This document shows, piece after piece, positions 4,533 to 22,212 of a DNA stretch of 64,000 nucleotides. Under the pieces are notes generated by a model. It was not told the DNA's origin. It saw only the letters and a list, made by a program, of their open reading frames with translations, and did no database searches. A program made the position numbers and the translations under genes. Source of the DNA: Escherichia coli (GTDB lineage: Bacteria; Pseudomonadota; Gammaproteobacteria; Enterobacterales; Enterobacteriaceae). Location: NCBI RefSeq assembly GCF_022846255.1, contig NZ_AP025682.1, one strand, 5' to 3'. Within the stretch, counting starts at the first letter, position 1, and each line of letters opens with the position of its first letter.

Positions 4533-4625
4533 GCTTTTTCTCCGCAATATTCAGGCGCAAAAGCCCGATTTTCTGTTCTTCTGTTGCAAGACAGAAGAAG
4601 ATATCTCTCAAATTTGCTTTGGTCT

Positions 4626-7055
4626 TCACGAATACTTTTTCGTTCGTCGCGTCGGTGCGGTGTTTGCCGGGTCGTCCGGCCAGACATGTTTGGGATAACG
4701 CCCTTTCATCTCTTTTTGCACCTCACGGTACGCTCCTTTCCAGAAGGCGCTCAAATCACGCGTGATTTGCAGCGGCCTTTGGGCAGGGGAAAGCAACTCC
4801 AGCACCAACGGTACGCGCCCCTGGGCGATAGTCGGATTAGTGGCCTCACCAAACATCTCCTGCATTCTCACCGCCAGCGCGGGCGGGTTATCTTCATGGT
4901 AACGAATGGCGATCCGGCTTCCCGTCGGCACAGTGTAATGCGCAGGCAATTCACTATCCAGACGTTGCTGCATTACCCAATCAAGTAATCCACGCAGTGC
5001 CTGATAAATATCGAGTGATTTCAGGCCGCGTAGCGAATGTACGCCTGTCATATGCGGCAGTAGCCACGTTTCCAGCGTCGCCAACAAACTTTCATCATCA
5101 ACCGCTGGCCAGTCATATTCCGGCAACCACTTTGCGGCGCATAACAAACGCAAGCGTAGCTGTTCCGCTTCCGCCGTCCAGTTGAGCACGCTTAAACCTT
5201 TATCACGAATGCCGTTAAGCATCGCCTGATGCAACTCGTCTTCCGAGGGTTTCGCCAGCGGTTGCACTTTTACCGTCAACTGACCAATTTGCAGCCGACG
5301 CCAGGCTTTCAGCGTACCTTGCGCGTCATCCCACTCCACGGTGTCCGATTGCTGTACCAGCTGCGGGCAGCGTTGTACTAACTCATCAATATCGACCGGC
5401 AGCGCCAGTAAAATCCGTGCATCCGGTGAGGCGCTGCCCTGCAATAATAACGGTGCGATCAACCATTCGTGGCGGCTTAGCGCATCGTCGGCATCGAGCA
5501 TCGCCCCCATGCCGTTCGCCAGTTGATAGCGTTCATCTTGCCCACGGCGACGAGCAATGCGATCGGCATACGCTCTGGCAAGTAGCGGCGCGATAAGCGA
5601 ACTGTCTGCCTCACCGCCGCGTACGTTTAAGCGTTTTAACAGTTGCTGACTACGTTGCTGCCAGGCGGGTTGATTGCGCGAAAAAGCCACGCCCAGGTCA
5701 CTATTGCCCATCCGTGGCGGCTCTTCGAGAATGGCGGCAATTTTTGCCGCGGTAGCAGCTTCGTCGTCGTTCTTCGCGCTAACCAGCATTGCCGCTAAAC
5801 GCGGATCGTTACCCAGCGCTGCCATTTTTTGCCCTTGCGCGCTTAGGCGTTCACCGTCCAGCGCCCCCAGCATCCGTAACAGGCGTTTCGCGGCCAGTAG
5901 ATTCACCGTTGGCGGTTGATCCATCCAGCTCATCTGCGCCGGATCGCTGCATCCCCATTGCAGTAATTCCATCAGCAAACCGGAAAGATCGCTTTGTAAG
6001 ATCTCCGGTTCACTTTGTGCGGCAGCGCGTTCTGCTTGTTCTTTGGCGATTAAATGCAGGCAGATACCCGGCTCCAGACGCCCGGCACGCCCGGCACGTT
6101 GCGTCATCGACGCCTGACTAACGCGTTGAGTAACCAGCCGCGTAAGCCCTGTACGCGGATCAAAACGCGCCACCCTTTCCTGGGCACAATCCACCACCAG
6201 ACGAATACCTTCGATGGTTAAACTTGTTTCAGCAATATTGGTCGCCAGCACCACTTTACGCATCCCTTGCGGTGCCGGGAGGATCGCTTTTCGCTGATCG
6301 TTCAGCGACAACGCGCCATACAGCGGGCAGAGCAACACATCACTGCCGATGCGTGAAGCCAGTTGTTCCTGCACACGCTGAATTTCTCCGACGCCAGGTA
6401 AAAATAACAGTAATGATCCATTTTCCTGACGCAGCATTTCGGCGGTGGCAACCGCGACGGCTTCGTCAAAACGCTGATGAGCGGGCAGCGGCAAATAACG
6501 GCGTTCAACCGGAAACGAGCGCCCTTCTGAGATGACGACGGGCGCTTCTGGCAGCATTTGCTGCAAGCGGTCGTTGTCCAGCGTAGCCGACATAATCAGC
6601 AGTTTAAGGTCATCACGCAGACCTTGTTGCACATCGAGTAACAGCGCCAACGCCAAATCCGCCTGCAAGCTGCGCTCATGAAATTCATCAAGGATCACCA
6701 ATCCAACACCGCTCAGTTCCGGGTCACGCTGGATCATCCGCGTCAGCACGCCTTCGGTAACCACTTCCAGGCGGGTATTCGGCCCGACGCAGTTTTGCGC
6801 ACGCATCCGGTAGCCAACGGTATCGCCTGGCTTTTCGTTAAGCAGCTCCGCCAGTCGTTGCGCAACGTTACGCGCCGCCAGACGACGCGGCTCCAGCAGG
6901 ATAATTTTCCCGTTAATGCCGGGATGCGCCAGCAGTTGCAGCGGCAGCCAGGTTGATTTCCCGGCCCCGGTCGGCGCACTTAATAACACCTGCGATGCAC
7001 CATCGAGGGCAGCAAGTAACTCAGGTAAGACGGCAGCAACGGGCAACGACGACAC
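4626..7055 (-). CDS. hrpB: ATP-dependent RNA helicase HrpB (DEAH-box)
   Basis: ORF track 4626..7100; GTG at 7055 gives (M)SSLPVAAVLPELL N-terminus and 809 aa; Walker A SAPTGAGKST, DEFH motif. Confidence 0.88.
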   Translation of the reverse strand: MSSLPVAAVLPELLAALDGASQVLLSAPTGAGKSTWLPLQLLAHPGINGKIILLEPRRLAARNVAQRLAELLNEKPGDTVGYRMRAQNCVGPNTRLEVVTEGVLTRMIQRDPELSGVGLVILDEFHERSLQADLALALLLDVQQGLRDDLKLLIMSATLDNDRLQQMLPEAPVVISEGRSFPVERRYLPLPAHQRFDEAVAVATAEMLRQENGSLLLFLPGVGEIQRVQEQLASRIGSDVLLCPLYGALSLNDQRKAILPAPQGMRKVVLATNIAETSLTIEGIRLVVDCAQERVARFDPRTGLTRLVTQRVSQASMTQRAGRAGRLEPGICLHLIAKEQAERAAAQSEPEILQSDLSGLLMELLQWGCSDPAQMSWMDQPPTVNLLAAKRLLRMLGALDGERLSAQGQKMAALGNDPRLAAMLVSAKNDDEAATAAKIAAILEEPPRMGNSDLGVAFSRNQPAWQQRSQQLLKRLNVRGGEADSSLIAPLLARAYADRIARRRGQDERYQLANGMGAMLDADDALSRHEWLIAPLLLQGSASPDARILLALPVDIDELVQRCPQLVQQSDTVEWDDAQGTLKAWRRLQIGQLTVKVQPLAKPSEDELHQAMLNGIRDKGLSVLNWTAEAEQLRLRLLCAAKWLPEYDWPAVDDESLLATLETWLLPHMTGVHSLRGLKSLDIYQALRGLLDWVMQQRLDSELPAHYTVPTGSRIAIRYHEDNPPALAVRMQEMFGEATNPTIAQGRVPLVLELLSPAQRPLQITRDLSAFWKGAYREVQKEMKGRYPKHVWPDDPANTAPTRRTKKYS

Positions 7056-7128
7056 AAAACGCTCCAGAGGGTTAACATTCTTCGCGCCACATTGTAGCAT
7101 CGCGGTAATTCATAACCGAGTGCCTCAC

Positions 7129-8378
<1,250 letters not shown>

Positions 8379-8555
8379 TAGAGTAAGTGACTGGTTAATT
8401 TACATTCTGGTCGCGTGCGCAAATACGCTTTTCCTCACACAGTTGTCAAGTGTTACGTTTAGATAATTGCTATCCGGAAAAGCATCTGCTATTTATAGCG
8501 GCCTCATTTTTCCCCCGAACATGGGGATCGATAGTGCGTGTTAAGGAGAAGCAAC

Positions 8556-9011
8556 ATGCAAGAAGGGCAAAACCGTAAAACATCGTCCCTGAGTATTCTC
8601 GCCATCGCTGGGGTGGAACCATATCAGGAGAAGCCGGGCGAAGAGTATATGAATGAAGCCCAGCTGGCGCACTTCCGTCGTATTCTGGAAGCATGGCGTA
8701 ATCAACTCAGGGATGAAGTCGATCGCACCGTTACACATATGCAGGATGAAGCAGCCAACTTCCCGGACCCGGTAGACCGTGCAGCCCAGGAAGAAGAGTT
8801 CAGCCTCGAATTGCGTAACCGCGATCGCGAGCGTAAGCTGATCAAAAAGATCGAGAAGACGCTGAAAAAAGTGGAAGACGAAGATTTCGGCTACTGCGAA
8901 TCCTGCGGTGTTGAAATCGGTATTCGCCGTCTGGAAGCGCGCCCGACAGCCGATCTGTGCATCGACTGCAAAACGCTGGCTGAAATTCGCGAAAAACAGA
9001 TGGCTGGCTAA
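8556..9011 (+). CDS. dksA: RNA polymerase-binding transcription factor DksA
   Basis: Within ORF 8538..9011; ATG 8556 preceded by AAGGAGAA; [32 protein letters not shown]4 zinc finger [25 protein letters not shown]; 151 aa. Confidence 0.93.
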
Positions 9012-9038
9012 TTACAGCCGTTCCATCACGTTTACCAC

Positions 9039-9068
9039 AGGCGGGAAATGCTCCCGCCTTATTTTTTG
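9039..9068 (+). terminator. Intrinsic terminator downstream of dksA, overlapping the gluQ start codon
   Basis: Stem AGGCGGGA / TCCCGCCT (9039-9046 / 9052-9059) followed by TATTTTTTG; the gluQ ATG (9048) lies in the loop. Confidence 0.7.
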
Positions 9069-9974
9069 TTCAAAGAGATGACAGACACACACTATATTGG
9101 TCGCTTCGCCCCCTCTCCTTCCGGCGAGCTTCATTTTGGCTCTCTGATTGCCGCGCTTGGCAGCTATTTACAGGCTCGCGCCCGGCAAGGTCGCTGGCTG
9201 GTACGCATTGAAGATATCGACCCGCCTCGTGAAGTTCCCGGTGCCGCAGAAACTATCCTGCGCCAGCTGGAACATTACGGCCTGCACTGGGACGGCGACG
9301 TTCTCTGGCAATCGCAACGTCACCACGCCTATCGCGAAGCACTCGCCTGGTTACATGAGCAAGGACTAAGTTATTACTGCACCTGCACGCGTGCGCGTAT
9401 TCAAAGCATTGGCGGTATTTACGACGGTCATTGCCGGGATTTGCATCATGGACCAGACAACGCCGCAGTACGTATCCGCCAGCAGCATCCGGTCACCCAG
9501 TTTACTGACCTGCTGCGAGGCATTATTCACGCCGACGAAAAACTGGCACGGGAAGATTTTATTATTCATCGCCGTGATGGTTTGTTTGCCTATAACCTGG
9601 CGGTGGTGGTGGATGATCACTTCCAGGGCGTGAGCGAAATTGTCCGCGGGGCAGATTTGATCGAACCGACGGTGCGGCAAATCTCGCTGTACCAGCTTTT
9701 TGGCTGGAAAGTGCCAGATTACATCCATTTACCGCTGGCGCTTAATCCACAAGGCGCTAAACTTTCCAAGCAGAATCATGCGCCTGCGTTGCCGAAAGGC
9801 GATCCGCGCCCGGTGTTAATCGCGGCACTTCATTTTCTGGGTCAGCAGGTAGAAACACACTGGCAGGATTTCAGCGTCGAGCAAATCCTTCAGTCAGCCG
9901 TCAAAAACTGGACGCTGACCGCCGTGCCTGAGTCGGCAATTGTAAATTCAACATTCTCAAATGCGTCATGCTGA
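9048..9974 (+). CDS. gluQ: Glutamyl-Q tRNA(Asp) synthetase (truncated GluRS paralog)
   Basis: ORF 9048..9974 (308 aa) [33 protein letters not shown] (class I HIGH-like motif), KLSKQ motif near C-terminus. Confidence 0.85.
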
Positions 9975-10033
9975 GCTATGATTAGCCGCTATTTTTTTGT
10001 CCTGAATGATGTTTGACACTACCGAGGTGTACT

Positions 10034-11431
10034 ATTTTTACCCGAGTCGCTAATTTTTGCCGCAAGGTGCTAAGCCGCGAGGAAAGCGAGGCTGAACAGG
10101 CAGTCGCCCGTCCACAGGTGACGGTGATCCCGCGTGAGCAGCATGCTATTTCCCGCAAAGATATCAGTGAAAATGCCCTGAAGGTAATGTACAGGCTCAA
10201 TAAAGCGGGATACGAAGCCTGGCTGGTTGGCGGCGGCGTGCGCGACCTGTTACTTGGCAAAAAGCCGAAAGATTTTGACGTGACCACCAACGCCACGCCA
10301 GAGCAGGTGCGCAAACTGTTCCGTAATTGCCGCCTGGTGGGTCGCCGTTTCCGTCTGGCTCATGTGATGTTTGGCCCGGAGATTATCGAAGTTGCGACCT
10401 TCCGTGGACATCACGAAGGTAACGTCAGCGACCGCACGACCTCCCAACGCGGGCAAAACGGTATGTTGCTGCGCGACAACATTTTCGGCTCCATCGAAGA
10501 AGACGCCCAGCGCCGCGATTTCACTATCAACAGCCTGTATTACAGCGTGGCAGATTTTACCGTCCGTGATTACGTTGGCGGCATGAAGGATCTGAAAGAC
10601 GGCGTTATCCGTCTGATTGGTAACCCGGAAACGCGCTACCGTGAAGATCCGGTACGGATGCTTCGCGCGGTTCGTTTTGCCGCCAAATTGGGCATGCGCA
10701 TCAGCCCGGAAACCGCCGAGCCGATCCCACGCCTGGCAACCTTACTGAACGATATCCCACCGGCACGTCTGTTTGAAGAATCGCTGAAACTGTTGCAAGC
10801 GGGCTACGGTTACGAAACCTATAAGCTGCTGTGTGAATATCATCTGTTCCAGCCGCTGTTCCCGACCATTACCCGCTACTTCACGGAAAATGGCGACAGC
10901 CCGATGGAGCGGATCATTGAACAGGTGCTGAAGAATACCGATACGCGTATCCATAACGATATGCGCGTGAACCCGGCGTTCCTGTTTGCCGCCATGTTCT
11001 GGTATCCACTGCTGGAGACGGCACAGAAAATTGCTCAGGAGAGCGGCCTGACCTATCACGACGCTTTCGCACTGGCGATGAACGACGTGCTGGACGAAGC
11101 CTGCCGTTCACTGGCGATCCCGAAACGTCTGACTACGTTAACCCGCGATATCTGGCAGTTGCAGTTGCGTATGTCCCGTCGTCAGGGTAAACGCGCATGG
11201 AAACTGCTGGAGCATCCTAAGTTCCGTGCGGCATACGACCTGTTGGCCTTACGAGCCGAAGTTGAGCGTAACGCTGAACTGCAACGTCTGGTGAAATGGT
11301 GGGGTGAGTTCCAGGTTTCCGCGCCGCCAGACCAAAAAGGGATGCTTAACGAACTGGATGAAGAACCGTCACCGCGTCGTCGTACTCGTCGTCCACGCAA
11401 ACGCGCACCGCGTCGTGAGGGTACCGCATGA
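10034..11431 (+). CDS. pcnB: Poly(A) polymerase I
   Basis: ORF track 10013..11431 (TTG); conserved N-terminus (M)[13 protein letters not shown] begins at ATT 10034-10036 with GAGG 6 nt upstream, giving 465 aa; nucleotidyltransferase motif [17 protein letters not shown]; basic C-terminal tail. Confidence 0.85.
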
Positions 11432-11907
11432 CAGTGGCGTATATTGCCATAGGCAGCAATCTGGCCTCTCCGCTGGAGCAGGTCAATGCTGCCCTGAAAG
11501 CATTAGGCGATATTCCAGAAAGCCGCATTCTTGCTGTTTCTTCGTTTTACCGCACCCCACCGCTGGGGCCGCAAGATCAACCCGATTACTTAAATGCCGC
11601 CGTCGCGCTGAAAACCACTCTTGCCCCTGAAGAGCTACTCAATCACACACAGCGTATCGAATTGCAGCAAGGTCGCGTCCGTAAAGCTGAACGCTGGGGA
11701 CCGCGCACGCTGGATCTCGACATCATGCTGTTTGGTAATGAAGTAATAAATACCGAACGTCTGACCGTTCCGCACTACGATATGAAAAATCGCGGCTTTA
11801 TGCTGTGGCCACTGTTTGAAATTGCGCCGGAATTGGTATTTCCTGATGGCTTATCATTAGTTGAAGCTCTACAGGCAAAAGGCTTTAATGAATTAGATAA
11901 GTGGTAA
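11428..11907 (+). CDS. folK: 2-amino-4-hydroxy-6-hydroxymethyldihydropteridine pyrophosphokinase (HPPK)
   Basis: ORF 11428..11907 (159 aa) [31 protein letters not shown]; start overlaps pcnB stop (ATGA). Confidence 0.9.
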
Positions 11908-12269
11908 TTATTATTCGTGTGAATATAAATATATTCCGAAAATAACCATAAACCATTGCAAATAATAATATAATTAATATAAATAAAAACACAGAAAATA
12001 TAATATACCTTCCCGAAATTCTAATTCCATACACCACCCCCTTAATTTTTTAAAGTTAATTTTACTAATTTTCATATTTAGTAAAATTAACTTCCATATG
12101 TCATGGCATTATGCAAAATAGCTGTCCTAATGATGAATGAATGTAATACTTAGTAAAAAACAAACAAACATCATTAACAAAGTAACGTTCAGTTACATGG
12201 CATTGCATCAAAATCTCATCATCATGCAATGCTGTTATCTGCTTTATGGAATATTACTCAAGGATTTTT
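11908..12269. promoter_or_regulatory. Strongly AT-rich leader upstream of the yad fimbrial operon (likely promoter and nucleoid-protein silencing region)
   Basis: ~360 bp of highly AT-rich sequence with A/T tracts between folK stop and yadN start, unlike the surrounding GC-balanced coding DNA. Confidence 0.4.
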
Positions 12270-12860
12270 ATGTCTAAAAAATTAGGTTTTGCGCTGTCCG
12301 GTATTATGTTGGCAATGGCTGCTGGTACTGCATTTGCTGCTAACGATATGGACGGCGGTCAATTAAATATTAGCGGTCTGGTCGTTGATAACACTTGTGA
12401 AGCTCGTGTTGATGGCGGTAACAAAGACGGTCTGATCCTGCTGCAAACCGCTACTGTTGCTGAAATTACTGATGGTGTACTGGATACCACTGTAGGCGCT
12501 AAAGCTAAACCATTCAGCATTACTATTGACTGCAGCAAAGCTAACCCGGCTCCGGGTACTACTGCAAAAATGACCTTCGGTTCTGTTTTCTTTGGTAACA
12601 GCAAAGGAACACTGAACAACGACATGTCTATTAACACCCCGTCTGACGGCGTAAATATCGCTCTGCACAATATTGAAGGTTCTACTATTAAACAGGTTCA
12701 GGTCAATAATCCGGGTGATGTTTACAGCAAAACTCTGGATTCAACGTCTAAATCTGCAACCTACGATTTTAAAGCATCCTATGTTCGTGCGGATGCAAGC
12801 AAAGCAGCTACTGCCGGTTATGTAAAAACCAACTCAGCATACACCATTACTTACCAGTAA
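12270..12860 (+). CDS. yadN: Fimbrial major subunit (chaperone-usher pilin)
   Basis: Within ORF 12246..12860; ATG 12270 preceded by AAGGA; signal peptide [23 protein letters not shown]; pilin-like C-terminus ...[10 protein letters not shown]; first gene of operon. Confidence 0.75.
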
Positions 12861-12968
12861 ATATCAACCACTTAAATTGATCGGGTGAATATATACAGGG
12901 AATAACATCAAATATTTTTACTTTTGATAATTATTCCCTGTTTTAATTAATTCTGTAAGGAATGGTTT

Positions 12969-13709
12969 ATGTTTTTTAATACTAAACATACCGCAGCATT
13001 GTGCTTAGCGAGCTGTATGGCTTTTAGCTCATCAGCTATTGCAGACATCGTAATTTCAGGTACACGCGTAGTTTATAAAAGCGAACAAAAAAGCGTCAAT
13101 GTACGTCTGGAAAATAAAGGCAATAACCCATTGCTGGTTCAGAGTTGGTTAGATACTGGAGATGATAACGCTGAACCAGGCAGTATTACTGTCCCCTTTA
13201 CCGCTACGCCGCCAGTATCACGTATTGATGCTAAACGTGGCCAAACAATCAAACTGATGTACACCGCCAGCAGTGCTCTGCCAAAAGACAGAGAAAGTGT
13301 GTTCTGGTTTAACGTACTGGAAGTACCTCCAAAACCCGATGCAGCAAAAGCAGCAAACCAAAGCCTGCTACAACTGGCATTTCGCACACGTATAAAACTG
13401 TTCTATCGCCCGGAAGGATTGAGTGGAATTTCATCTGATGCACCATTGGCTCTGAAGTGGTCCTGGGCAACATCTGAAGGCAAAGCAGCATTACGCGTTG
13501 ATAACCCTACGCCCTACTATGTCTCTTTTAGCAGTGGTGATTTAGAAGCCAATGGCAAACGCTATCCCCTGGATATGACAATGATTGCGCCGTTCAGTAA
13601 CGACGTCATCAAGGTAAATGGGATGAGTGGCAGAACAAGCTCTGCAAAAGTGCATTTTTTCGCCATTAATGATTTTGGTGGATCTATTGAAGGCAACGCC
13701 AACCTTTAA
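12969..13709 (+). CDS. yadV: Periplasmic fimbrial chaperone (PapD-like)
   Basis: ORF 12969..13709 (246 aa); signal peptide; PapD-family sequence (NPLLVQSWLD..., RESVFWFNV...). Confidence 0.8.
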   Translation: MFFNTKHTAALCLASCMAFSSSAIADIVISGTRVVYKSEQKSVNVRLENKGNNPLLVQSWLDTGDDNAEPGSITVPFTATPPVSRIDAKRGQTIKLMYTASSALPKDRESVFWFNVLEVPPKPDAAKAANQSLLQLAFRTRIKLFYRPEGLSGISSDAPLALKWSWATSEGKAALRVDNPTPYYVSFSSGDLEANGKRYPLDMTMIAPFSNDVIKVNGMSGRTSSAKVHFFAINDFGGSIEGNANL

Positions 13710-13743
13710 TCTGGCAAGGATATAACACAGCAGGAAGCAGAAC

Positions 13744-16332
13744 GTGACTATTAAATCTACTAATCACCTTACCCACATCGCCACGTTTTGCGCTCTGCTG
13801 TATAGCAATAGTGCTTTATGCGCTGAACTCGTCGAATATGACCATACATTTCTGATGGGAAAGGATGCTTCAAATATCGACCTTAGTCGGTATACAGAAG
13901 GCAACCCGACACTACCTGGCATTTACGATGTCAGTGTGTATGTTAACGATCAACCCATCATGAGCCAAAGCATTGCTTTTACTGTTATTGAAGGTAAAAA
14001 GAACGCTCAGGCCTGCATTACGCAGAAAAATTTATTGCAATTTCATATCAGTTCACCAGACAAGAATAGCGAAAAAGCCATTTTGCTTAAGCGAGACGAC
14101 GATCTTGGTGATTGCCTCAATCTGGCTGAAATGATCCCTCAATCATCCATTCGTTACGATGTTAACGATCAACGCCTGGATATCGACGTCCCCCAGGCAT
14201 GGATTATGAAGAATTATCAAAACTATGTTGATCCCTCTTTGTGGGAAAATGGCATTAATGCAGCCATGCTTTCCTACAACCTCAACGGATATCACAGTGA
14301 AAGTCCAGGCAGAACAAATGACAGTATCTACGCGGCATTCAACGGTGGGATAAACTTAGGTGCCTGGCGGTTACGTGCCTCGGGTAACTACAACTGGATG
14401 ACCAATGTCCATAGCGATTACGATTTTCAGAATCGCTATTTACAACGCGATCTTGCGTCACTACGTTCACAACTGGTTATTGGTGAATCTTACACAACCG
14501 GCGAAACCTTCGATTCAGTCAGTATTCGCGGTATTCGTTTATACAGTGACAGTCGAATGCTGCCTCCGGTATTAGCCAGTTTTGCGCCAATCATTCATGG
14601 CGTAGCGAATACCAATGCCAAAGTAACCGTTATGCAAAATGGTTATAAGATCTATGAAACGACGGTGCCGCCAGGAGCTTTTACCATTGACGATCTTAGC
14701 CCATCAGGTTATGGCAGCGATCTCATTGTGACTATCGAAGAAGCTGATGGCACAAAACGGACGTTCTCCCAGCCATTTTCATCTGTTGTGCAAATGCTGC
14801 GCCCTGGCGTTGGTCGCTGGGATATTAGCGCCGGTCAGGTTTTAAAAGACAGTATCCAGGATGAGCCTAATTTATTTCAAGCCAGCTACTACTATGGTTT
14901 GAATAACTACCTGACAGGATATACCGGTATTCAGCTAACTGATAATAACTATACCGCCGGATTGCTGGGGCTTGGTATGAATACCCCCGTGGGGGCTTTT
15001 TCTGTCGATGTTACTCACTCAAATGTCAGCATTCCGGATGATAAAACCTATCAAGGACAAAGCTACCGTATTTCCTGGAACAAGTTATTTGAAAATACCA
15101 GTACATCATTAAATATCGCGGCCTATCGCTACTCCACCCAGCATTATCTGGGCCTCAATGATGCGCTGACGCTGATTGATGAAGTAGAACATCCTGAGCA
15201 AGATCTTGAGCCTAAATCCATGCGCAATTACTCGCGCATGAAAAATCAGGTCACGGTCAGTATCAACCAACCGCTGAAATTTGAGAAAAAGGATTACGGT
15301 TCATTTTATCTCTCGGGAAGCTGGTCAGATTACTGGGCCTCCGGGCAAAACAGTACTAATTACTCTATTGGTTATAGCAATAGTGCGTCCTGGGGCAGTT
15401 ACAGTATCAGTGCTCAACGTTCGTTGAATGAAGATGGTCAAACCGACGATAGCATTTATCTCAGCTTCACGATTCCAATAGAAAATTTACTGGGTACGGA
15501 ACACCGCAGCTCCGGCTTCCAGAGTATTGATACACAATTAAACAGCGACTTTAAGGGTAATAACCAACTCAATATCAGCAGTAGTGGTTACAGCGATACC
15601 AATCGTATCAGCTACAGCGTAAACACGGGTTATATGATGAATAAATCCAGTGATGACCTGAGTTATATCGGCGGTTATGCCAGTTATGAATCGCCGTGGG
15701 GAACGCTGTCAGGTTCAGCCTCAGCAAGCAGTGATAATAGTCGCCAATTCTCACTCAATACTGATGGTGGATTTGTGTTACATAGCGGCGGGCTGACGTT
15801 CAGTAATGACAGTTTTAGTGATTCCGACGCTCTGGCTGTCATTCAGGCGCCAGGAGCAAAAGGCGCTCGTATTAACTACGGAAACAGCACCGTAGACCGC
15901 TGGGGTTATGGTGTGACCAGCGCCCTTTCGCCATACCATGAAAACCGTATCGCACTGGACATTAACGATCTGGAAAACGATGTTGAATTGAAAAGCACCA
16001 GTACTGTCGCCGTCCCGCGCCAGGGAGCCGTCGTCTTTGCTGATTTTGAAACAGTTCAGGGACAATCGGCAATTATGAATATCGTGCGAAGCGATGGTAA
16101 AAATATTCCATTTGCAGCGGATATTTATGATGAACAAAACAATATCATCGGCAACGTAGGTCAGGGTGGTCAGGCCTTTGTTCGCGGTATCGGGCAGGAA
16201 GGAAATATACGAATTACCTGGATTGAAGAGGGCAAACCAGTCAGTTGTTTTGCTCATTACCAACAAAACACGACATCAGAAAAAATAGCACAATCTATTA
16301 TTCTTAACGGGCTTCGTTGTCAGATACAGTAA
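13744..16332 (+). CDS. htrE: Fimbrial outer-membrane usher
   Basis: ORF 13744..16332 (862 aa, GTG start); usher-family sequence with C-terminal ...LNGLRCQIQ; positioned after the chaperone gene. Confidence 0.85.
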   Translation: MTIKSTNHLTHIATFCALLYSNSALCAELVEYDHTFLMGKDASNIDLSRYTEGNPTLPGIYDVSVYVNDQPIMSQSIAFTVIEGKKNAQACITQKNLLQFHISSPDKNSEKAILLKRDDDLGDCLNLAEMIPQSSIRYDVNDQRLDIDVPQAWIMKNYQNYVDPSLWENGINAAMLSYNLNGYHSESPGRTNDSIYAAFNGGINLGAWRLRASGNYNWMTNVHSDYDFQNRYLQRDLASLRSQLVIGESYTTGETFDSVSIRGIRLYSDSRMLPPVLASFAPIIHGVANTNAKVTVMQNGYKIYETTVPPGAFTIDDLSPSGYGSDLIVTIEEADGTKRTFSQPFSSVVQMLRPGVGRWDISAGQVLKDSIQDEPNLFQASYYYGLNNYLTGYTGIQLTDNNYTAGLLGLGMNTPVGAFSVDVTHSNVSIPDDKTYQGQSYRISWNKLFENTSTSLNIAAYRYSTQHYLGLNDALTLIDEVEHPEQDLEPKSMRNYSRMKNQVTVSINQPLKFEKKDYGSFYLSGSWSDYWASGQNSTNYSIGYSNSASWGSYSISAQRSLNEDGQTDDSIYLSFTIPIENLLGTEHRSSGFQSIDTQLNSDFKGNNQLNISSSGYSDTNRISYSVNTGYMMNKSSDDLSYIGGYASYESPWGTLSGSASASSDNSRQFSLNTDGGFVLHSGGLTFSNDSFSDSDALAVIQAPGAKGARINYGNSTVDRWGYGVTSALSPYHENRIALDINDLENDVELKSTSTVAVPRQGAVVFADFETVQGQSAIMNIVRSDGKNIPFAADIYDEQNNIIGNVGQGGQAFVRGIGQEGNIRITWIEEGKPVSCFAHYQQNTTSEKIAQSIILNGLRCQIQ

Positions 16333-16348
16333 CCACAAGGGACTTCCA

Positions 16349-16915
16349 ATGATAAAAATCACACCACATAAAATAACAATACTCATGGGACTATTGTTAT
16401 CGCCTTCGGTATTTGCAACGGATGTTAATGTCGATTTTACCGCTACCGTGAAAGCAACAACCTGTAATATTACACTTACCGGAACTAATGTCACTGATAA
16501 TGGAAATGATAAGTACACCTTAGTTATTCCCTCGATGGGAATGGATAAAATAGCCAATAAAACAGCACAATCTGAAGCCAACTTTAAATTGGTAGCCAAT
16601 GGATGCAGCAGTGGAATTAGCTGGATTGATACAACCCTGACAGGAAATCAATCAGGAAGTTCACCCGCGCTAATTATCCCCCTGGCCAGTGATACAACCT
16701 CCACCACAAGCTATATCGGAATGGGATTTAAAAGGAAGGCGACTTCAGGCGATACATTTCTGAAACCCAATAGCACAGAATACATACGCTGGAGTGCATC
16801 AGAAATTAGCACCGATGGACTTGAGATGACTGTCGCACTGCGTGAAACAAGTGTAGGGCAAGGTGTTCCAGGCAAGTTTCGCGCACTGGCAACTTTTAAC
16901 TTCAGCTATCAATAA
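16349..16915 (+). CDS. yadM: Fimbrial minor subunit
   Basis: ORF 16349..16915 (188 aa); AAGGGA 6 nt upstream; signal peptide; C-terminal FNFSYQ pilin-like strand. Confidence 0.7.
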   Translation: MIKITPHKITILMGLLLSPSVFATDVNVDFTATVKATTCNITLTGTNVTDNGNDKYTLVIPSMGMDKIANKTAQSEANFKLVANGCSSGISWIDTTLTGNQSGSSPALIIPLASDTTSTTSYIGMGFKRKATSGDTFLKPNSTEYIRWSASEISTDGLEMTVALRETSVGQGVPGKFRALATFNFSYQ

Positions 16916-16929
16916 CAAGGATGACAATG

Positions 16930-17535
16930 ATGATATTAAAAAAATTATGTTATGGATTATCGGGTAGTCTATTTCTGGCTTCATCACTGTTTACCATTCC
17001 TTCGCATGCAGCCACTGACAGTATTGGCCTGACTGTTACTACTGACGTAGAAATGGGTACCTGTACATCAACGTTGACTGATGACGGTACAACTAAAATT
17101 TCCACCATCAATTTCGGTGATGTATATATTTCTGAAATTAATGCCGAAACTAAAATTAAAACCTTCAAATTACAGTTCAAAGACTGTGCGGGGATTCCCG
17201 GGAAAAAGGCCAAAATAAAATTGACTCCACGAGCATTATGTGAAGGTAATTCTAATAATGGTCCTGGATTTGCTAACGCATCAACGGCAACAGCAAAAGC
17301 AGCGGCGGTCGCCGTTGAGGTCTGGAGCACATCTACGCCAGGTAAGAACGGCGCTAAACAATTCAGTTGTGTCACCCCCGCAACAGAAGAAGTCAGTATT
17401 GCTAATGCGACAGGCAGCAATGTTGTCGATTACCCAATGAGTGCGGTGTTGGTGGTCGCAAAAGATAAAACTGTCACAAATGTCACTGCGGGTGATTTCA
17501 CTGCCCCGGCAACATTCACCGTGACTTATAACTAA
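16930..17535 (+). CDS. yadL: Fimbrial minor subunit
   Basis: ORF track 16921..17535; three in-frame ATGs (16921, 16927, 16930) after AAGGA at 16916-16920; 16930 gives 201 aa; signal peptide; C-terminal FTVTYN. Confidence 0.65.
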   Translation: MILKKLCYGLSGSLFLASSLFTIPSHAATDSIGLTVTTDVEMGTCTSTLTDDGTTKISTINFGDVYISEINAETKIKTFKLQFKDCAGIPGKKAKIKLTPRALCEGNSNNGPGFANASTATAKAAAVAVEVWSTSTPGKNGAKQFSCVTPATEEVSIANATGSNVVDYPMSAVLVVAKDKTVTNVTAGDFTAPATFTVTYN

Positions 17536-17561
17536 CAGGCAGACTGATTCAGGAACTAAAT

Positions 17562-18158
17562 ATGCGTCCCACTCAACGTAATCTGATGAAAAAATCAATT
17601 CTGCTTCTGTCGTTGCTATTCAGCGCCACTTCCCCTGTGGTTGCAGGACAGAATGTTGACATTGTTGCAAATATAAAAAATAACACCTGCCAAAGTGGAA
17701 TCAGCAACAACGGAAATATTGATTTAGGTGTCGTTGGCGTGGGCGATTTTACCGGAAACATTTCAGCCGAAAATTATCACCCCGGTGGAAAAGAGTTCAC
17801 TATTACAGTACAGGACTGCACACTTCAGGGCACAGGGAATGTGTTAAATCAGTTACATATTGATTTTCGCGCACTCAGTGGCGTAATGGCGACAGGTTCC
17901 AGTCAAATATTCGCCAATGAAGACAACGCCGGGGCTAAAAATGTTGGGGTAGTTATATTTTCTATTCAGGACCCGGCAAATACCTTCAACGTTCTTGGTG
18001 CCACTGGTAGCTCACGTTCCGTTTATCCGGTCATGTCATCAGCACTAAATAATTCATCCTGGAAATTTAGTACCCGAATGCAAAAAATCGATCCGGCGCT
18101 GAATGTCACCTCTGGCCCACTGATAAGCCATGTGTTAGTGGATATCTACTACGAATAA
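17562..18158 (+). CDS. yadK: Fimbrial minor subunit
   Basis: ORF 17562..18158 (198 aa); AGGAA upstream; signal peptide; C-terminal ...HVLVDIYYE. Confidence 0.7.
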
Positions 18159-18208
18159 CAGACAAAGTGTCTGCAAGTATTATCTTGCAGCATGACAATG
18201 GAGTAAAA

Positions 18209-19471
18209 ATGAAGACATTCTTCAGATACTTTCTTTTTTTAGCACTATGCTCTTGTTGTTATACAGCAAGCGCCGGCATCGATGATCACGTCGGCTATAT
18301 TGTTGGGAATGATTACGGTGTTGGGCCTGGAGACCAAAAATGGCGTGAGGCAGGTCCCAATGGAGATGTTACCGTCAAATTCCGGTATGGATCAGGCACC
18401 AATAATTTAGTTTTTTATAAACCAACCCAACTTGGCCCAACCGGGGTGTCATTAAAATGGGAGCAGTTAGATTCCGCTTCGGGTAGAGGTTTCCTTTACT
18501 GTAACAGAAGTAGTAACTCAAGTGGCGAACCAATGTCTATTGAACATAAAATGGTTGATTCCGGTAAAAGTTATGGCGGACATAAACTCTTTGAGACATC
18601 TGTTCCAGGTCTGTATTATACATTGGCAATATCAAACATTTGGTCAGCATATACATCTACCAATATCAACTCATCAGGCATATATATTGGCGATTCTACG
18701 GACCAAACTTTTTACTGGCGTGGCGAAAGTGAGCAAACCCTATATCGGTCTTGCAACAATGCAAATACAAAAAATAAATATTGGGCCGTTGGTGGCGTTA
18801 TGCAAACGCTCACGATTGAATTTTATACCGATACCAACTTTAACCCGACAACGAATCAACGGGTAACATTGTCCAAAACAGATGGTTACCTCTACTCATT
18901 CAAAGCATATGGTGCTGGCGTTGGTATCAAGAGTTATTTTCTTAAAATCGACTTTGACCTGACAGATATCGTATTAACCAACCCCACCTGCTTTACTGCT
19001 GTACTTACCGGAAAATCAGTAAGTGGTTCGACGGTAAAAATGGGAGAATATGCACCAGGACAGATAAAAAATGGCGCGACTCCGGTTCCTTTTGATATTT
19101 CTCTCAAAAACTGTGTTCGCGTTGGCGATATAGAGACAAAGCTATCTTCAGGGAAGTTAGGTACAGAAAACAAGCAACTCCTGGGTAACACACTCACTGG
19201 AAGCGACACAGCAAAAGGCGTTGGGGTATTGATTGAAGGATTAGAAAACAGTAAAAGTGCCTTAATGATACTGAAACCTAATGATCCAAGTTCTGTTTAT
19301 AAAGATAATACGGGTCAGACTCAGGATAACGATTCAGATGCGATTTACCCGGAAGCTGACGGTATAACTTATCCACTTCATTTCCAGGCTACATTAAAAC
19401 AAGACGGTAATATTGCTATAGAACCGGGGGATTTTAAAGCCACCAGCACTTTTCAGGTTACCTACCCCTGA
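18209..19471 (+). CDS. yadC: Fimbrial tip adhesin-like subunit
   Basis: Within ORF 18167..19471; ATG 18209 after GGAG; signal peptide [22 protein letters not shown]; two-domain size (420 aa) with pilin-like C-terminus ...TSTFQVTYP. Confidence 0.7.
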
Positions 19472-19582
19472 TAACACTATTGCACCGCCAGACAATGGCG
19501 GTGCGATACGGATAAATCATTGCCCCCACCAATGTGACTGATAAAATGCGAGACAGCACAACATCATTTATCAGGATACGCT

Positions 19583-20377
19583 ATGAAACCAACCACGATT
19601 GCTTCATTGCAGAAATGCAAGCAGGACAAAAAACGTTTCGCAACCATCACCGCTTACGACTATAGCTTCGCAAAACTGTTTGCCGAAGAAGGACTTAACG
19701 TCATGCTGGTAGGCGACTCACTGGGCATGACGGTTCAGGGGCATGACTCCACGCTACCGGTTACCGTTGCCGATATCGCCTATCACACCGCCGCTGTGCG
19801 TCGCGGCGCGCCAAACTGCCTTCTGCTGGCTGACCTGCCATTTATGGCGTATGCCACGCCGGAACAAGCCTTTGAAAACGCCGCAACGGTAATGCGTGCC
19901 GGAGCCAACATGGTCAAAATTGAAGGAGGTGAGTGGCTGGTGGACACCGTACAAATGCTGACCGAACGTGCCGTTCCAGTTTGTGGTCATTTAGGCCTAA
20001 CCCCACAGTCAGTGAATATTTTCGGTGGCTACAAAGTCCAGGGGCGCGGCGATGAAGCGGGCGATCGACTGCTCAGCGATGCATTAGCCTTAGAAGCTGC
20101 TGGGGCACAACTGCTGGTACTGGAGTGCGTGCCGGTTGAACTGGCAAAACGCATTACCGAAGCACTGGCGATCCCGGTTATCGGTATTGGCGCAGGCAAC
20201 GTCACTGACGGGCAAATTCTCGTGATGCACGACGCGTTCGGCATTACCGGCGGTCATATTCCTAAATTCGCCAAAAACTTCCTCGCCGAAACGGGCGACA
20301 TCCGCGCGGCTGTGCGGCAGTATATGGCTGAAGTGGAGTCCGGCGTTTACCCGGGCGAAGAACACAGTTTCCATTAA
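19583..20377 (+). CDS. panB: 3-methyl-2-oxobutanoate hydroxymethyltransferase
   Basis: ORF 19583..20377 (264 aa) [33 protein letters not shown]. Confidence 0.93.
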
Positions 20378-20388
20378 GGAGTGACGTT

Positions 20389-21240
20389 GTGTTAATTATC
20401 GAAACCCTGCCGCTGCTGCGTCAGCAAATTCGCCGCCTGCGTATGGAAGGTAAGCGCGTGGCGCTGGTGCCCACCATGGGTAACCTGCACGATGGCCATA
20501 TGAAGCTGGTCGACGAAGCCAAAGCCCGCGCCGATGTGGTCGTCGTCAGTATTTTCGTTAACCCGATGCAGTTTGACCGCCCGGAAGATCTGGCACGTTA
20601 TCCACGGACCTTGCAAGAGGACTGCGAAAAGCTGAACAAACGTAAAGTGGATTTAGTTTTCGCGCCTTCGGTAAAAGAGATCTACCCGAACGGTACAGAA
20701 ACCCACACCTATGTTGATGTTCCCGGTCTTTCCACCATGCTGGAAGGTGCCAGCCGTCCGGGACATTTTCGCGGCGTTTCGACTATCGTCAGCAAGCTGT
20801 TCAATCTGGTCCAGCCGGACATCGCCTGCTTCGGTGAAAAAGATTTTCAGCAACTGGCGCTGATCCGCAAAATGGTTGCCGATATGGGCTTCGATATTGA
20901 GATTGTCGGAGTGCCGATTATGCGCGCGAAAGACGGTCTGGCGCTCAGTTCCCGTAACGGCTATCTGACGGCGGAACAACGTAAAATTGCGCCGGGTCTC
21001 TACAAAGTCTTAAGTTCAATTGCCGACAAATTGCAGGCTGGCGAACGGGATCTCGATGAAATTATTGCTATTGCCGGGCAAGAACTGAATGAAAAAGGTT
21101 TCCGCTCCGATGATATTCAGATTCGCGATGCCGACACATTGCTGGAGGTCTCTGAAAACAGCAAACGCGCAGTGATTCTGGTAGCCGCCTGGCTTGGCGA
21201 TGCTCGCCTGATCGACAACAAACTGGTCGAACTGGCGTAA
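20389..21240 (+). CDS. panC: Pantoate--beta-alanine ligase (pantothenate synthetase)
   Basis: ORF 20389..21240 (283 aa, GTG start after AAGGA); (M)[36 protein letters not shown]. Confidence 0.93.
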
Positions 21241-21244
21241 TGCT

Positions 21245-21283
21245 TAACTGGCGCTACGGCTGATGGCGCCAGTTATTCATTGC
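21245..21283. terminator. Bidirectional intrinsic terminator between convergent panC and yadD
   Basis: Perfect 10-bp stem TAACTGGCGC / GCGCCAGTTA (21245-21254 / 21266-21275) with 11-nt loop, followed by TTCATT. Confidence 0.6.
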
Positions 21284-21321
21284 CACGTTATCTGTAAGCA
21301 ATTATTCATATCGTAGACTAC

Positions 21322-22212
21322 TTAGTTAGAGTTAATTAGCTTATCAATCTCTGCAAGAGATAAAGCTGTCACCTCTGCAACGTCTTCCCGAGACATTCCT
21401 TTACTCAGAAGACGCAGGGCGAATTCCTGACTTACTTCCTGTCTTCCCTGCTGAATCCCCTTCTCTTCAAACCACTGCGCCAGCGTCATCATAGACTCCC
21501 CTCCCGTTTCCCTGTCTCTCACCACACCATAAAACAAATCCGCTTGTTCAGTATGACCGCGTTGCAGCATATAGTTTTGCATGGCAACTAACTGACTTCC
21601 GCTAGTGTACCCTTCGTCAATCAGCGTGACCAGTTGCTCCAGCAATAACATTAAGTCGCGCTGGCGAATATGTTTTTGCAGCAGTTCGAGAATCGCAATC
21701 CGCCGATGTTGCATGATTTCGTCATCCGGTGTGATAGTGATATCCACCAGCGGGAAAGGACTGTTATAGACGCGTCGCGCCAGCTCCGGCGAGTAAAACA
21801 TATCAAACCAGCACATTGAGAGCGGATAAGGTGTGGCCTCGCCCTGATAAAACAGAATCGGCACCACCAGCGGCAGCTTATCGTGATCCGCCTCCAGATG
21901 CCGGTGCATGGCGGCAATGGCATAGCGCATCATGCGAAAGGTCATTTTCTTATCCGGCTTGCTTTGATGTTCAATCACCACATGCAAATAACCGGGATTG
22001 CCCTGCATTTGTACGGAATAGAGTACGTCCGTGCTGTGTCCTTTCAGGCTTTCCTCAATAAAACTCCCCGACTCAAGATGCAGCGTGTCGAGGTCACACA
22101 GTTCGCGTAGCTCCGCTGGCAAATGGATATCCAGAAAGTCGCGAGCCGTTTCCGCATGCATTAAAAATTGTTTAAACACCGCATCATGCGGTGTGGTACT
22201 CGGTGCATCCAT
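21322..22212 (-). CDS. rpnC: Recombination-promoting nuclease RpnC (Rpn / transposase_31 / PD-(D/E)XK family)
   Basis: ORF 21322..22212 (296 aa) MDAPSTTPHDAVFKQFLMHAETARDFLDIHLPAELRE...; recognised as YadD/RpnC; sits between panC and panD as in E. coli. Confidence 0.8.
   Translation of the reverse strand: MDAPSTTPHDAVFKQFLMHAETARDFLDIHLPAELRELCDLDTLHLESGSFIEESLKGHSTDVLYSVQMQGNPGYLHVVIEHQSKPDKKMTFRMMRYAIAAMHRHLEADHDKLPLVVPILFYQGEATPYPLSMCWFDMFYSPELARRVYNSPFPLVDITITPDDEIMQHRRIAILELLQKHIRQRDLMLLLEQLVTLIDEGYTSGSQLVAMQNYMLQRGHTEQADLFYGVVRDRETGGESMMTLAQWFEEKGIQQGRQEVSQEFALRLLSKGMSREDVAEVTALSLAEIDKLINSN

Follow-up and report, generated by a model that had tools for sequence, protein, structure and literature searches.

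The seven genes located at positions 12270–19471 on the + strand of the window (the whole 64-kb stretch of Escherichia coli DNA that was analysed) almost certainly form a complete and presumably functional operon for the E. coli Yad fimbriae, carried on a CFT073-type haplotype. All seven genes are intact and run in the same direction in the order yadN, yadV (ecpD), htrE, yadM, yadL, yadK and yadC, and they are bordered by folK and panB, in synteny with the K-12 locus. The operon is of the less common CFT073-type Yad subtype, to which the K-12 gene names apply as positional orthologues only.

The ORF map of the region was set against the annotated loci of K-12, CFT073, EC958, T309 and STEC299. 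An earlier sequence-only reading had placed seven co-oriented genes with short gaps in this interval, and its borders proved exact, running from the start codon of yadN to the stop codon of yadC. The seven + strand ORFs are separated by 108, 34, 16, 11, 26 and 50 nt, respectively. The alignments, which that reading had proposed as a check for frameshifts and premature stops, revealed neither in any of the seven yad genes, whose lengths equal those of the annotated orthologues, and the operon is thus intact. Antisense ORFs of 100–160 aa were also encountered within htrE, yadL and yadM, and these were taken as chance occurrences lying opposite well-supported genes. The G+C content of the yad block ranges from 37% to 45% compared with about 52% elsewhere, making it the sole extended low-GC stretch of the 64-kb window. 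The description of the block as accessory-like is borne out by this composition but sits poorly with the published classification of Yad as core-associated, a system that shares its usher clade and locus position with Salmonella Sta (Wurpel 2013, PMC3559732).

Domain, profile and fold searches assigned all seven proteins to the expected families (one PapD-like chaperone, one usher, four pilins and an adhesin with two domains), in the Yad order that had been proposed. Five of the seven proteins (YadV, HtrE, YadL, YadK and YadC) exceeded the NCBIfam equivalog cut-offs, while YadN and YadM stayed under every such cut-off, with StaA and StaD as their sub-threshold top matches. The chaperone gene yadV (12969–13709, +) encodes a periplasmic protein of 246 aa with PapD_N (2e-44) and PapD_C (5.6e-18) domains, scoring 458 bits against NF007398 (cut-off 285). 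YadV matches 5GHU, the solved structure of its K-12 counterpart (3e-129), as well as the structures of PapD, FimC and CupB2, and is 100% and 85% identical to the CFT073 and K-12 proteins, respectively. Two motifs, GTRV with Arg8 (mature N-terminus DIVISGTR) and RIKLFYRP with a Lys, suggest that this Arg/Lys pair is equivalent to R8/K112 of PapD. The outer-membrane usher gene htrE (13744–16332, +) has a GTG start and encodes 862 aa, in which Pfam places PapC_N at residues 31–182, Usher (2e-159) at 196–768 and PapC_C at 777–841. HtrE reached 1689 bits against NF007337 (cut-off 830), and its full-length PDB alignments were with FimD of the gamma class (418–424 bits) and PapC of the pi class (274 bits). 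It is 99.5% identical to the CFT073 usher and 87% identical to that of K-12.

The translations show the hallmarks of pilins, namely signal peptides, paired cysteines and a C-terminal strand whose penultimate residue is Tyr; the pilin-type C-termini are TYQ, SYQ, TYN, YYE and TYP. The major pilin gene yadN (12270–12860, +; 196 aa; Pfam Fimbrial 1.2e-10) encodes a protein that has a signal peptide and two Cys residues, ends in TITYQ and is 100% identical to CFT073 and 86% to K-12. The minor pilin gene yadM (16349–16915, +; 188 aa; Pfam Fimbrial 7.4e-18) encodes a protein that is 100%, 82% and 76% identical to those of CFT073, STEC299 and K-12, respectively. A further minor pilin is encoded by yadL (16927–17535, +; 202 aa; Pfam Fimbrial 7.5e-10), with 426 bits against NF011797 'YadL' (cut-off 206) and identities of 99% to CFT073 and 70% to K-12; its start at 16927 was picked by Shine-Dalgarno spacing and PGAP annotation over an alternative in-frame ATG at 16921. 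A divergent minor pilin gene, yadK (17562–18158, +; 198 aa), gave 304 bits against NF011794 (cut-off 132), and the protein is 98.5% identical to CFT073 and 77% to K-12. YadK lies outside Pfam, where it had no match even at E = 10. The comparison of YadK with a YadL/M/N profile by hhalign gave 96% probability (E = 3e-9), and the model built from a six-sequence alignment, of low confidence (pLDDT 54.6), had FimA, FimF and FimG as top fold matches. Its pilin membership is therefore argued from NCBIfam and the profile–profile comparison, with hhalign carrying the claim and the model lending weak support.

The last gene, yadC (18209–19471, +), encodes a two-domain tip adhesin of 420 aa, with 816 bits against NF007267 (cut-off 391). 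The ATG at 18209 was preferred over the GTG at 18167, which gives the longest ORF, on account of a GGAG Shine-Dalgarno sequence upstream and the same PGAP start in the closest genomes. The protein consists of a lectin domain (about residues 23–252) and a pilin domain (about 253–420), and Pfam Fimbrial covers only its C-terminal third. The PDB sequence search yielded no solved YadC structure, and the fold was therefore assessed on a predicted model. The AlphaFold model (pLDDT 86.8) had FimH, CupB6, FocH, CfaE and PapG as its best Foldseek matches in the PDB, and its C-terminal domain resembled FimA-type pilins with TM scores of 0.65–0.79. The cysteine pairs C98/C182 and C261/C302 are invariant.

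Substantial divergence from K-12 was observed across the yad block, contrary to the near-identity that the K-12 gene names would imply; the DNA is about 79% identical and the seven proteins 59–87% identical, and the names hold as positional orthologues. The deeply divergent segment spans 11600–19900, with sliding identity of 58–84% inside and 95–99% outside, and it runs into folK (3′ half) on one side and panB (5′ part) on the other. The dS values against K-12 range from 0.7 to 1.8 in the yad genes, compared with 0.145 in pcnB and 0.207 in panC, while the folK 3′ half and panB reach 0.60 and 0.36, respectively. The proteins from YadN to YadK are 98.5–100% identical to those of CFT073. A CFT073-type htrE was found in 559 of 5,426 complete genomes, and the distribution of htrE identity is bimodal, with these 559 genomes at ≥95%, a single genome at 90–95% and the remaining detected ones at about 81% or less. 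At least three deeply diverged haplotypes occupy the folK–panB position. Two Yad subtypes have been described within phylogroup B2 (Ellison 2026, PMC13245861), and the existence of subtypes, together with the variability of the lectin domain, has already been published (Ellison 2026; Wurpel 2013). The expectation that subunits and adhesin would be the most variable part of the region is likewise seen in the protein identities to the reference strains.

The folK–yadN intergenic leader, which is taken as the promoter region (11908–12269, +), has a G+C content of 26%. It is 97% identical to CFT073 but just 52–57% identical to K-12 and EC958 (K-12, 57%), and only its final ~25 nt, including the AAGGA Shine-Dalgarno sequence, are conserved across all types. 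The leader ORFs are AT-rich junk of 33–50 aa, with no credible gene or hidden regulator among them, and no regulator gene lies within the yad operon, as had been stated before. A simple sigma-70 consensus scan gave no + strand site in the leader, with counts no higher than in shuffled sequence. The leader is also devoid of GATC sites, as is the whole of 11717–12433, and no convincing fimS-like flanking inverted repeats or recombinase gene were found as devices for phase variation, in line with the reported absence of phase variation from Yad (PMC13245861). A perfect 16-nt inverted repeat, AAGTTAATTTTACTAA and TTAGTAAAATTAACTT separated by 9 nt, is located in the leader at 12053–12093. A palindrome equally far from the yadN start is present in CFT073 and STEC299, both with arms of 13 nt, and in K-12, with arms of 11 nt, but is missing in EC958 and in the six-gene type.

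In CFT073, H-NS represses yadN more than 100-fold through about 200 bp of upstream DNA, and both serum and infected tissue induce the operon, with YadN located at the surface (PMC13245861). The H-NS-repressed CFT073 promoter fragment is about 98% identical to its counterpart here, which agrees with the proposal that the AT-rich leader would mediate silencing. By analogy, transcription would start in the 26% G+C leader, H-NS would silence yad in laboratory media, and signals from the host, serum and infected tissue among them, would lift the silencing, as in CFT073 with its near-identical leader. We infer from this likeness that CFT073 regulation probably carries over to the present strain. The label 'cryptic' is accordingly apt for laboratory media, on which Yad is silent in both K-12 and CFT073, but not for the host setting, where the CFT073-type operon is induced (PMC13245861).

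Two hairpins accompany the operon. One, CAGGGAATAA...TTATTCCCTG followed by TTTT, lies past yadN at 12895–12945 (+; fold z = −2.1) and is likely a partial terminator. Its stem and T-run are kept in all five aligned haplotypes, with one G-U change in EC958 and a variable loop, and it was overlooked by the terminator-pattern scan because of its long loop. The other is a 13-bp G+C-rich hairpin with no T-run, located directly past the yadC stop at 19478–19508 (+; fold z = −5.6); none of 200 shuffles was equally stable, and its stem is preserved in K-12 and EC958, where the base changes are compensatory or give G-U pairs. A conserved promoter-like site of panB follows at 19520–19547. The terminator-pattern scan, like the promoter scan, gave counts not above chance or shuffled sequence, and the promoter position and the roles of the hairpins are therefore argued from conservation and published work. 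The hairpin and T-run after yadN probably raise YadN output relative to that of the downstream genes, and the hairpin after yadC is probably the 3′ end of the transcript.

YadC departs from the pattern of the other six proteins, being 100% identical to that of STEC299 but 74%, 70% and 59% identical to those of CFT073, EC958 and K-12, respectively. The divergence from CFT073 is limited to 18250–19450, the region coding for mature YadC, and just 24 of the 5,426 complete genomes carry the allele (≥95% nucleotide identity). Recombination has replaced the yadC coding region of the CFT073-type haplotype with this rare allele. Xylose and annexin A2 are the ligands reported for the K-12 and CFT073 YadC alleles, and the lectin domain is reported to be variable, with the suggestion that its variation alters binding (PMC13245861). 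The present YadC may thus recognise another receptor than the K-12, CFT073 and EC958 proteins do. Whether the swap goes as far as altering the function of the organelle, which would then bind a receptor other than xylose or annexin A2 and not be equivalent to the K-12 or CFT073 Yad, is a tentative reading that we regard as plausible at somewhat less than even chances. The confinement of the divergence to mature YadC, the rarity of the allele, the lectin-domain dN of 0.16–0.41 against three reference alleles and the published suggestion on binding all speak for it, while the conserved fold, the four conserved cysteines and an average dN/dS below 0.3, with positive selection not demonstrated, weigh on the other side.

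It is highly improbable that the operon as a whole is a decaying, non-functional relic, retained in the genome with neither expression nor assembly. Such a fate would fit the silence of Yad on laboratory media, as well as the IS-interrupted or deleted yad of some genomes, e.g., HS-01, but all seven ORFs are of full length, and the near-identical CFT073 operon is surface-expressed and contributes to infection, its yad deletion mutant being attenuated (PMC13245861). In addition, dN/dS against K-12 is 0.05–0.19 in every yad gene and 0.21 in the YadC lectin domain, and such low values despite saturated dS point to long-term purifying selection. The origin of the block is a separate question from its function. 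An import of the CFT073-type block from a distantly related enterobacterial lineage, by homologous replacement via folK and panB, as opposed to an old polymorphism kept within the species, would account for its low G+C content, for dS values 5–10 times those of pcnB and panC, for the sharp fall of divergence inside folK and panB and for the bimodal htrE distribution. Against this, an integrase, tRNA, IS element or direct repeat is absent from the block borders, and the Rfam scan of 11000–20500 (E ≤ 1) returned no known RNA, tRNA included. Moreover, the low G+C content and the locus are common to all haplotypes, with Salmonella Sta at the same locus (PMC3559732), and all of the nearest YadC relatives belong to E. 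coli, other Escherichia species reaching only 57–59% identity. We consider the import doubtful. It is equally tentative to regard the folK–panB fimbrial locus as an ancient polymorphism that may predate the species and in which the adhesin gene is exchanged as a cassette, the present strain having a rare backbone–adhesin combination with an undescribed receptor specificity. The haplotypes concerned would number at least three (K-12/EC958, CFT073 and a six-gene type lacking yadL), with between-haplotype dS above 1 and divergence that hitch-hiked into folK and panB.

For the complete CFT073-type Yad operon favoured here, the established chaperone–usher pathway suggests the order of assembly. All seven products would carry Sec signal peptides, and YadV would cap each pilin in the periplasm by donor-strand complementation, after which the YadV–subunit complexes would dock at the HtrE usher. 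HtrE would polymerise the subunits via donor-strand exchange with YadC first, at the tip, followed by the minor pilins YadK, YadL and YadM and then by many copies of YadN as the rod. Yad has been placed in the gamma4 class (PMC11287998), a clade of the Nuccio and Baumler scheme, and this label was adopted here from the literature; the NF007337 score of HtrE and its higher score against FimD than against PapC agree with it indirectly.

Among the related systems, the Yad operon of CFT073 (c0166–c0172 region), which represents the 'CFT073-type' subtype of Ellison et al., has the same locus, gene order and hairpins, but its YadC is 429 aa long compared with 420 aa here. The marmot strain STEC299 has an identical yadC but a different yadM (82%). 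The K-12 operon (yadN-yadV/ecpD-htrE-yadMLKC), described by Korea 2010 and Larsonneur 2016 as cited in PMC13245861, shares the seven-gene order, the families, the AT-rich leader and the hairpins past yadN and yadC, while YadL and YadC here fit NCBIfam equivalog sub-models other than those fitting the K-12-length proteins. StaA, StaD and StaE of the Salmonella enterica Sta system (staA-G) are the best secondary NCBIfam matches of YadN, YadM and YadL, all below the equivalog cut-offs (132 vs. 230, 135 vs. 228 and 177 vs. 372 bits, respectively), and a Salmonella YadC-like protein reaches only about 35% identity. Type 1 fimbriae (fimAICDFGH) share the assembly machinery and a two-domain adhesin, with FimC matched by YadV (~94 bits), FimD by HtrE and FimH by the YadC model. 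Yad differs from them in having no invertible promoter element or recombinase genes, and also in its gene order, its larger lectin domain (~230 aa) and its GATC-free leader.

The gene content of Yad, its gamma4 class, H-NS silencing, subtypes, lectin variability and roles in adhesion and infection are already known, and the practical value of the present analysis lies in correct annotation, that is, of a CFT073-type operon with a rare YadC variant rather than a K-12 allele. Usher searches at 80% identity to one reference overlook whole haplotypes at the folK–panB locus. Since this YadC is only 59% and 74% identical to the K-12 and CFT073 alleles, respectively, the ligand data obtained with those alleles are not transferable to it untested.

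Between folK (11428-11907) and panB (19583-20377), the ORF map of the window revealed seven consecutive ORFs on the + strand, namely yadN (12270-12860, 196 aa), yadV, also named ecpD (12969-13709, 246 aa), htrE (13744-16332, 862 aa, with a GTG start), yadM (16349-16915, 188 aa), yadL (16927-17535, 202 aa), yadK (17562-18158, 198 aa) and yadC (18209-19471, 420 aa), with intergenic gaps of 108, 34, 16, 11, 26 and 50 nt, respectively. The borders of 12270 and 19471 proposed by the sequence-only reading coincide exactly with the start codon of yadN and the stop codon of yadC. The longest yadC ORF opens at GTG 18167, and the start was placed at ATG 18209 because this codon follows a GGAG Shine-Dalgarno, is where the signal peptide begins and serves as the PGAP start in the closest genomes. 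The seven ORFs contain no internal stops, and all their lengths equal those of the annotated orthologues in the closest genomes. The G+C content of the yad block is 37-45%, against ~52% in the remainder of the window, and the block is the sole extended low-GC stretch within the 64 kb.

In Pfam, YadV carries PapD_N and PapD_C, HtrE carries PapC_N, Usher and PapC_C, and the Fimbrial domain was detected in YadN, YadM, YadL and the C-terminal third of YadC. The curated NCBIfam equivalog cut-offs were exceeded by YadV, HtrE, YadL, YadK and YadC, while the top NCBIfam matches of YadN and YadM were Salmonella StaA and StaD, respectively, both under threshold. YadV matched the solved K-12 YadV structure 5GHU at 3e-129, and the FimD and PapC structures align with HtrE end to end. 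YadK was the only one of the seven proteins with no Pfam match even at E = 10; profile-profile comparison related it to YadL/M/N (probability 96%, E = 3e-9), and the top fold matches of its low-confidence model (pLDDT 54.6) were FimA, FimF and FimG. The YadC model, built from an alignment of 26 homologues (pLDDT 86.8), has the full-length two-domain adhesins FimH, CupB6, FocH, CfaE and PapG as top PDB matches, with a C-terminal domain resembling FimA-type pilins. Neither frameshifts nor missing family membership was found, and the complete chaperone-usher cluster proposed earlier is upheld.

The families and motifs are those of the established chaperone-usher pathway, which applies to Yad. All Yad subunits would be exported by the Sec pathway, folded and capped by YadV through donor-strand complementation, and polymerised by HtrE through donor-strand exchange. 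The predicted subunit order and stoichiometry would place YadC at the tip, followed by YadK, YadL and YadM as minor or adaptor subunits, with YadN forming the rod.

Though the operon flanks are 95-99.5% identical to E. coli genomes, the yad block shares only ~79% identity with K-12 and BL21, and no complete genome matched the whole block at 99% identity. In a sliding comparison with K-12, identity falls from 95-99% to 58-84% across ~11600-19900, so the drop begins in the folK 3′ half and ends within panB. Protein identity to K-12 is 86% for YadN, 85% for YadV, 87% for HtrE, 76% for YadM, 70% for YadL, 77% for YadK and 59% for YadC. Relative to K-12, the yad genes show a synonymous divergence of 0.7-1.8, compared with 0.145 for pcnB and 0.207 for panC; the folK 3′ half (0.60; 5′ half, 0.145) and panB (0.36) lie in between. 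Across the seven yad genes dN/dS is 0.05-0.19, and for the lectin domain of YadC it is 0.21. The Yad haplotypes are therefore old, and purifying selection acts on each. The FolK protein is just 90% identical to K-12, and folK 11600-11907 and panB 19583-19900 partly share the divergence of the operon, representing a hitch-hiking halo around a polymorphic fimbrial locus. Elsewhere, the window differs from K-12 by indels of ~102 nt between mrcB and hrpB (4250-5000) and ~26 nt around the panC-rpnC junction (21000-21750), and rpnC encodes 296 aa rather than 300 aa.

Compared with CFT073, YadN, YadV and YadM are 100% identical, HtrE 99.5%, YadL 99% and YadK 98.5%, and the folK-yadN leader (11908-12269) is 97% identical. 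These identities assign the operon to the CFT073-type Yad subtype, which was reported alongside the EC958 type in phylogroup B2 (Ellison et al. 2026, PMC13245861). The htrE identity was bimodal among 5,426 complete genomes, with 559 at ≥95%, one at 90-95% and the other detected copies at ≤~81%. The exception among the seven proteins is YadC, only 74% identical to that of CFT073, the difference being limited to 18250-19450, the part coding for the mature protein. YadC is 100% identical to that of strain STEC299, whose yadM differs from that of the window (82%), and only 24 complete genomes carry yadC at ≥95% nucleotide identity. Since YadC is shared with STEC299 but not with CFT073, and the yadM of STEC299 is different, the operon is a mosaic in which subunit genes, the adhesin gene above all, have been swapped as cassettes.

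Other forms of the locus were also observed. Strain NMBU_W05E18 (3611-10136) harbors a third type at folK-panB, a six-gene chaperone-usher operon without a yadL counterpart, whose proteins share 49-74% identity with their counterparts in the window and are beyond megablast reach; a survey that requires 80% identity to a single reference usher would call such strains Yad-negative. In HS-01 (5451-6088), the whole yad operon is deleted, leaving a folK-panB spacer of 638 bp with 68% G+C that resembles no yad sequence. EC958 (40725-45001) carries an extra chaperone-usher operon downstream of mrcB, at a site where the fhuA-mrcB gap in the window is only ~220 bp (correspondence with STEC299 and CFT073).

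The leader spans 362 nt with 26% G+C and contains neither a regulator gene nor any credible ORF; the earlier claim was that no dedicated regulator lies inside the operon. Neither GATC sites nor a fim-like switch were found in it, in agreement with the published absence of Yad phase variation (PMC13245861). Leaders are hardly alignable across haplotypes (52-57% identity), yet each has 26-31% G+C, and their sole common part is the last ~25 nt, including the Shine-Dalgarno. A CFT073 reporter covering ~200 bp upstream of yadN is induced by serum and de-repressed >100-fold in an hns mutant (PMC13245861); the window differs from this fragment at about three positions, as read from the alignment. At 12053-12093, about 180-215 nt upstream of yadN and at the edge of, or just beyond, the reporter fragment, lies a perfect 16-nt inverted repeat (AAGTTAATTTTACTAA-9-TTAGTAAAATTAACTT), which may act as an operator or form a structure at the folK transcript end. 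K-12 has a palindrome of related core (TTTACT(T)AA) at equal distance, despite the leaders being only 57% identical, while the EC958 and six-gene type leaders lack it. Another perfect inverted repeat, of small size (GCATTGCAT-15-ATGCAATGC), occupies 12200-12232, some 40-70 nt ahead of the yadN start, and is exclusive to CFT073-type leaders.

A hairpin with a T-run follows yadN (12895-12945) and is kept in all five aligned haplotypes with a variable loop; judging from other fimbrial operons, it probably attenuates read-through, favouring the major subunit. After the yadC stop, a 13-bp G+C-rich hairpin (19478-19508, z = -5.6) is preserved in K-12 via compensatory changes and is followed by a conserved panB promoter-like site. 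Simple promoter and terminator scans gave counts not above chance, and the Rfam search gave no match.

Overall, the results support the sequence-only interpretation and correct it on three points. The K-12 gene names fit in families and order, but the alleles are far from K-12 (59-87% protein identity); "cryptic" holds under laboratory conditions only; and the block is accessory-like by composition, whereas the locus is core-associated (PMC3559732). Yad fimbriae are of class gamma4 (PMC11287998), count as core-associated, occupy a fixed locus and are the counterpart of Salmonella Sta (PMC3559732). Published work also covers their silencing by H-NS, their induction by serum, their subtypes and the variability of the YadC lectin domain (PMC13245861). 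Everything observed at the operon has thus been described previously; how deeply the haplotypes are split, the folK/panB halo and the precise swap of the adhesin cassette add detail to the known picture rather than a novel class of feature.
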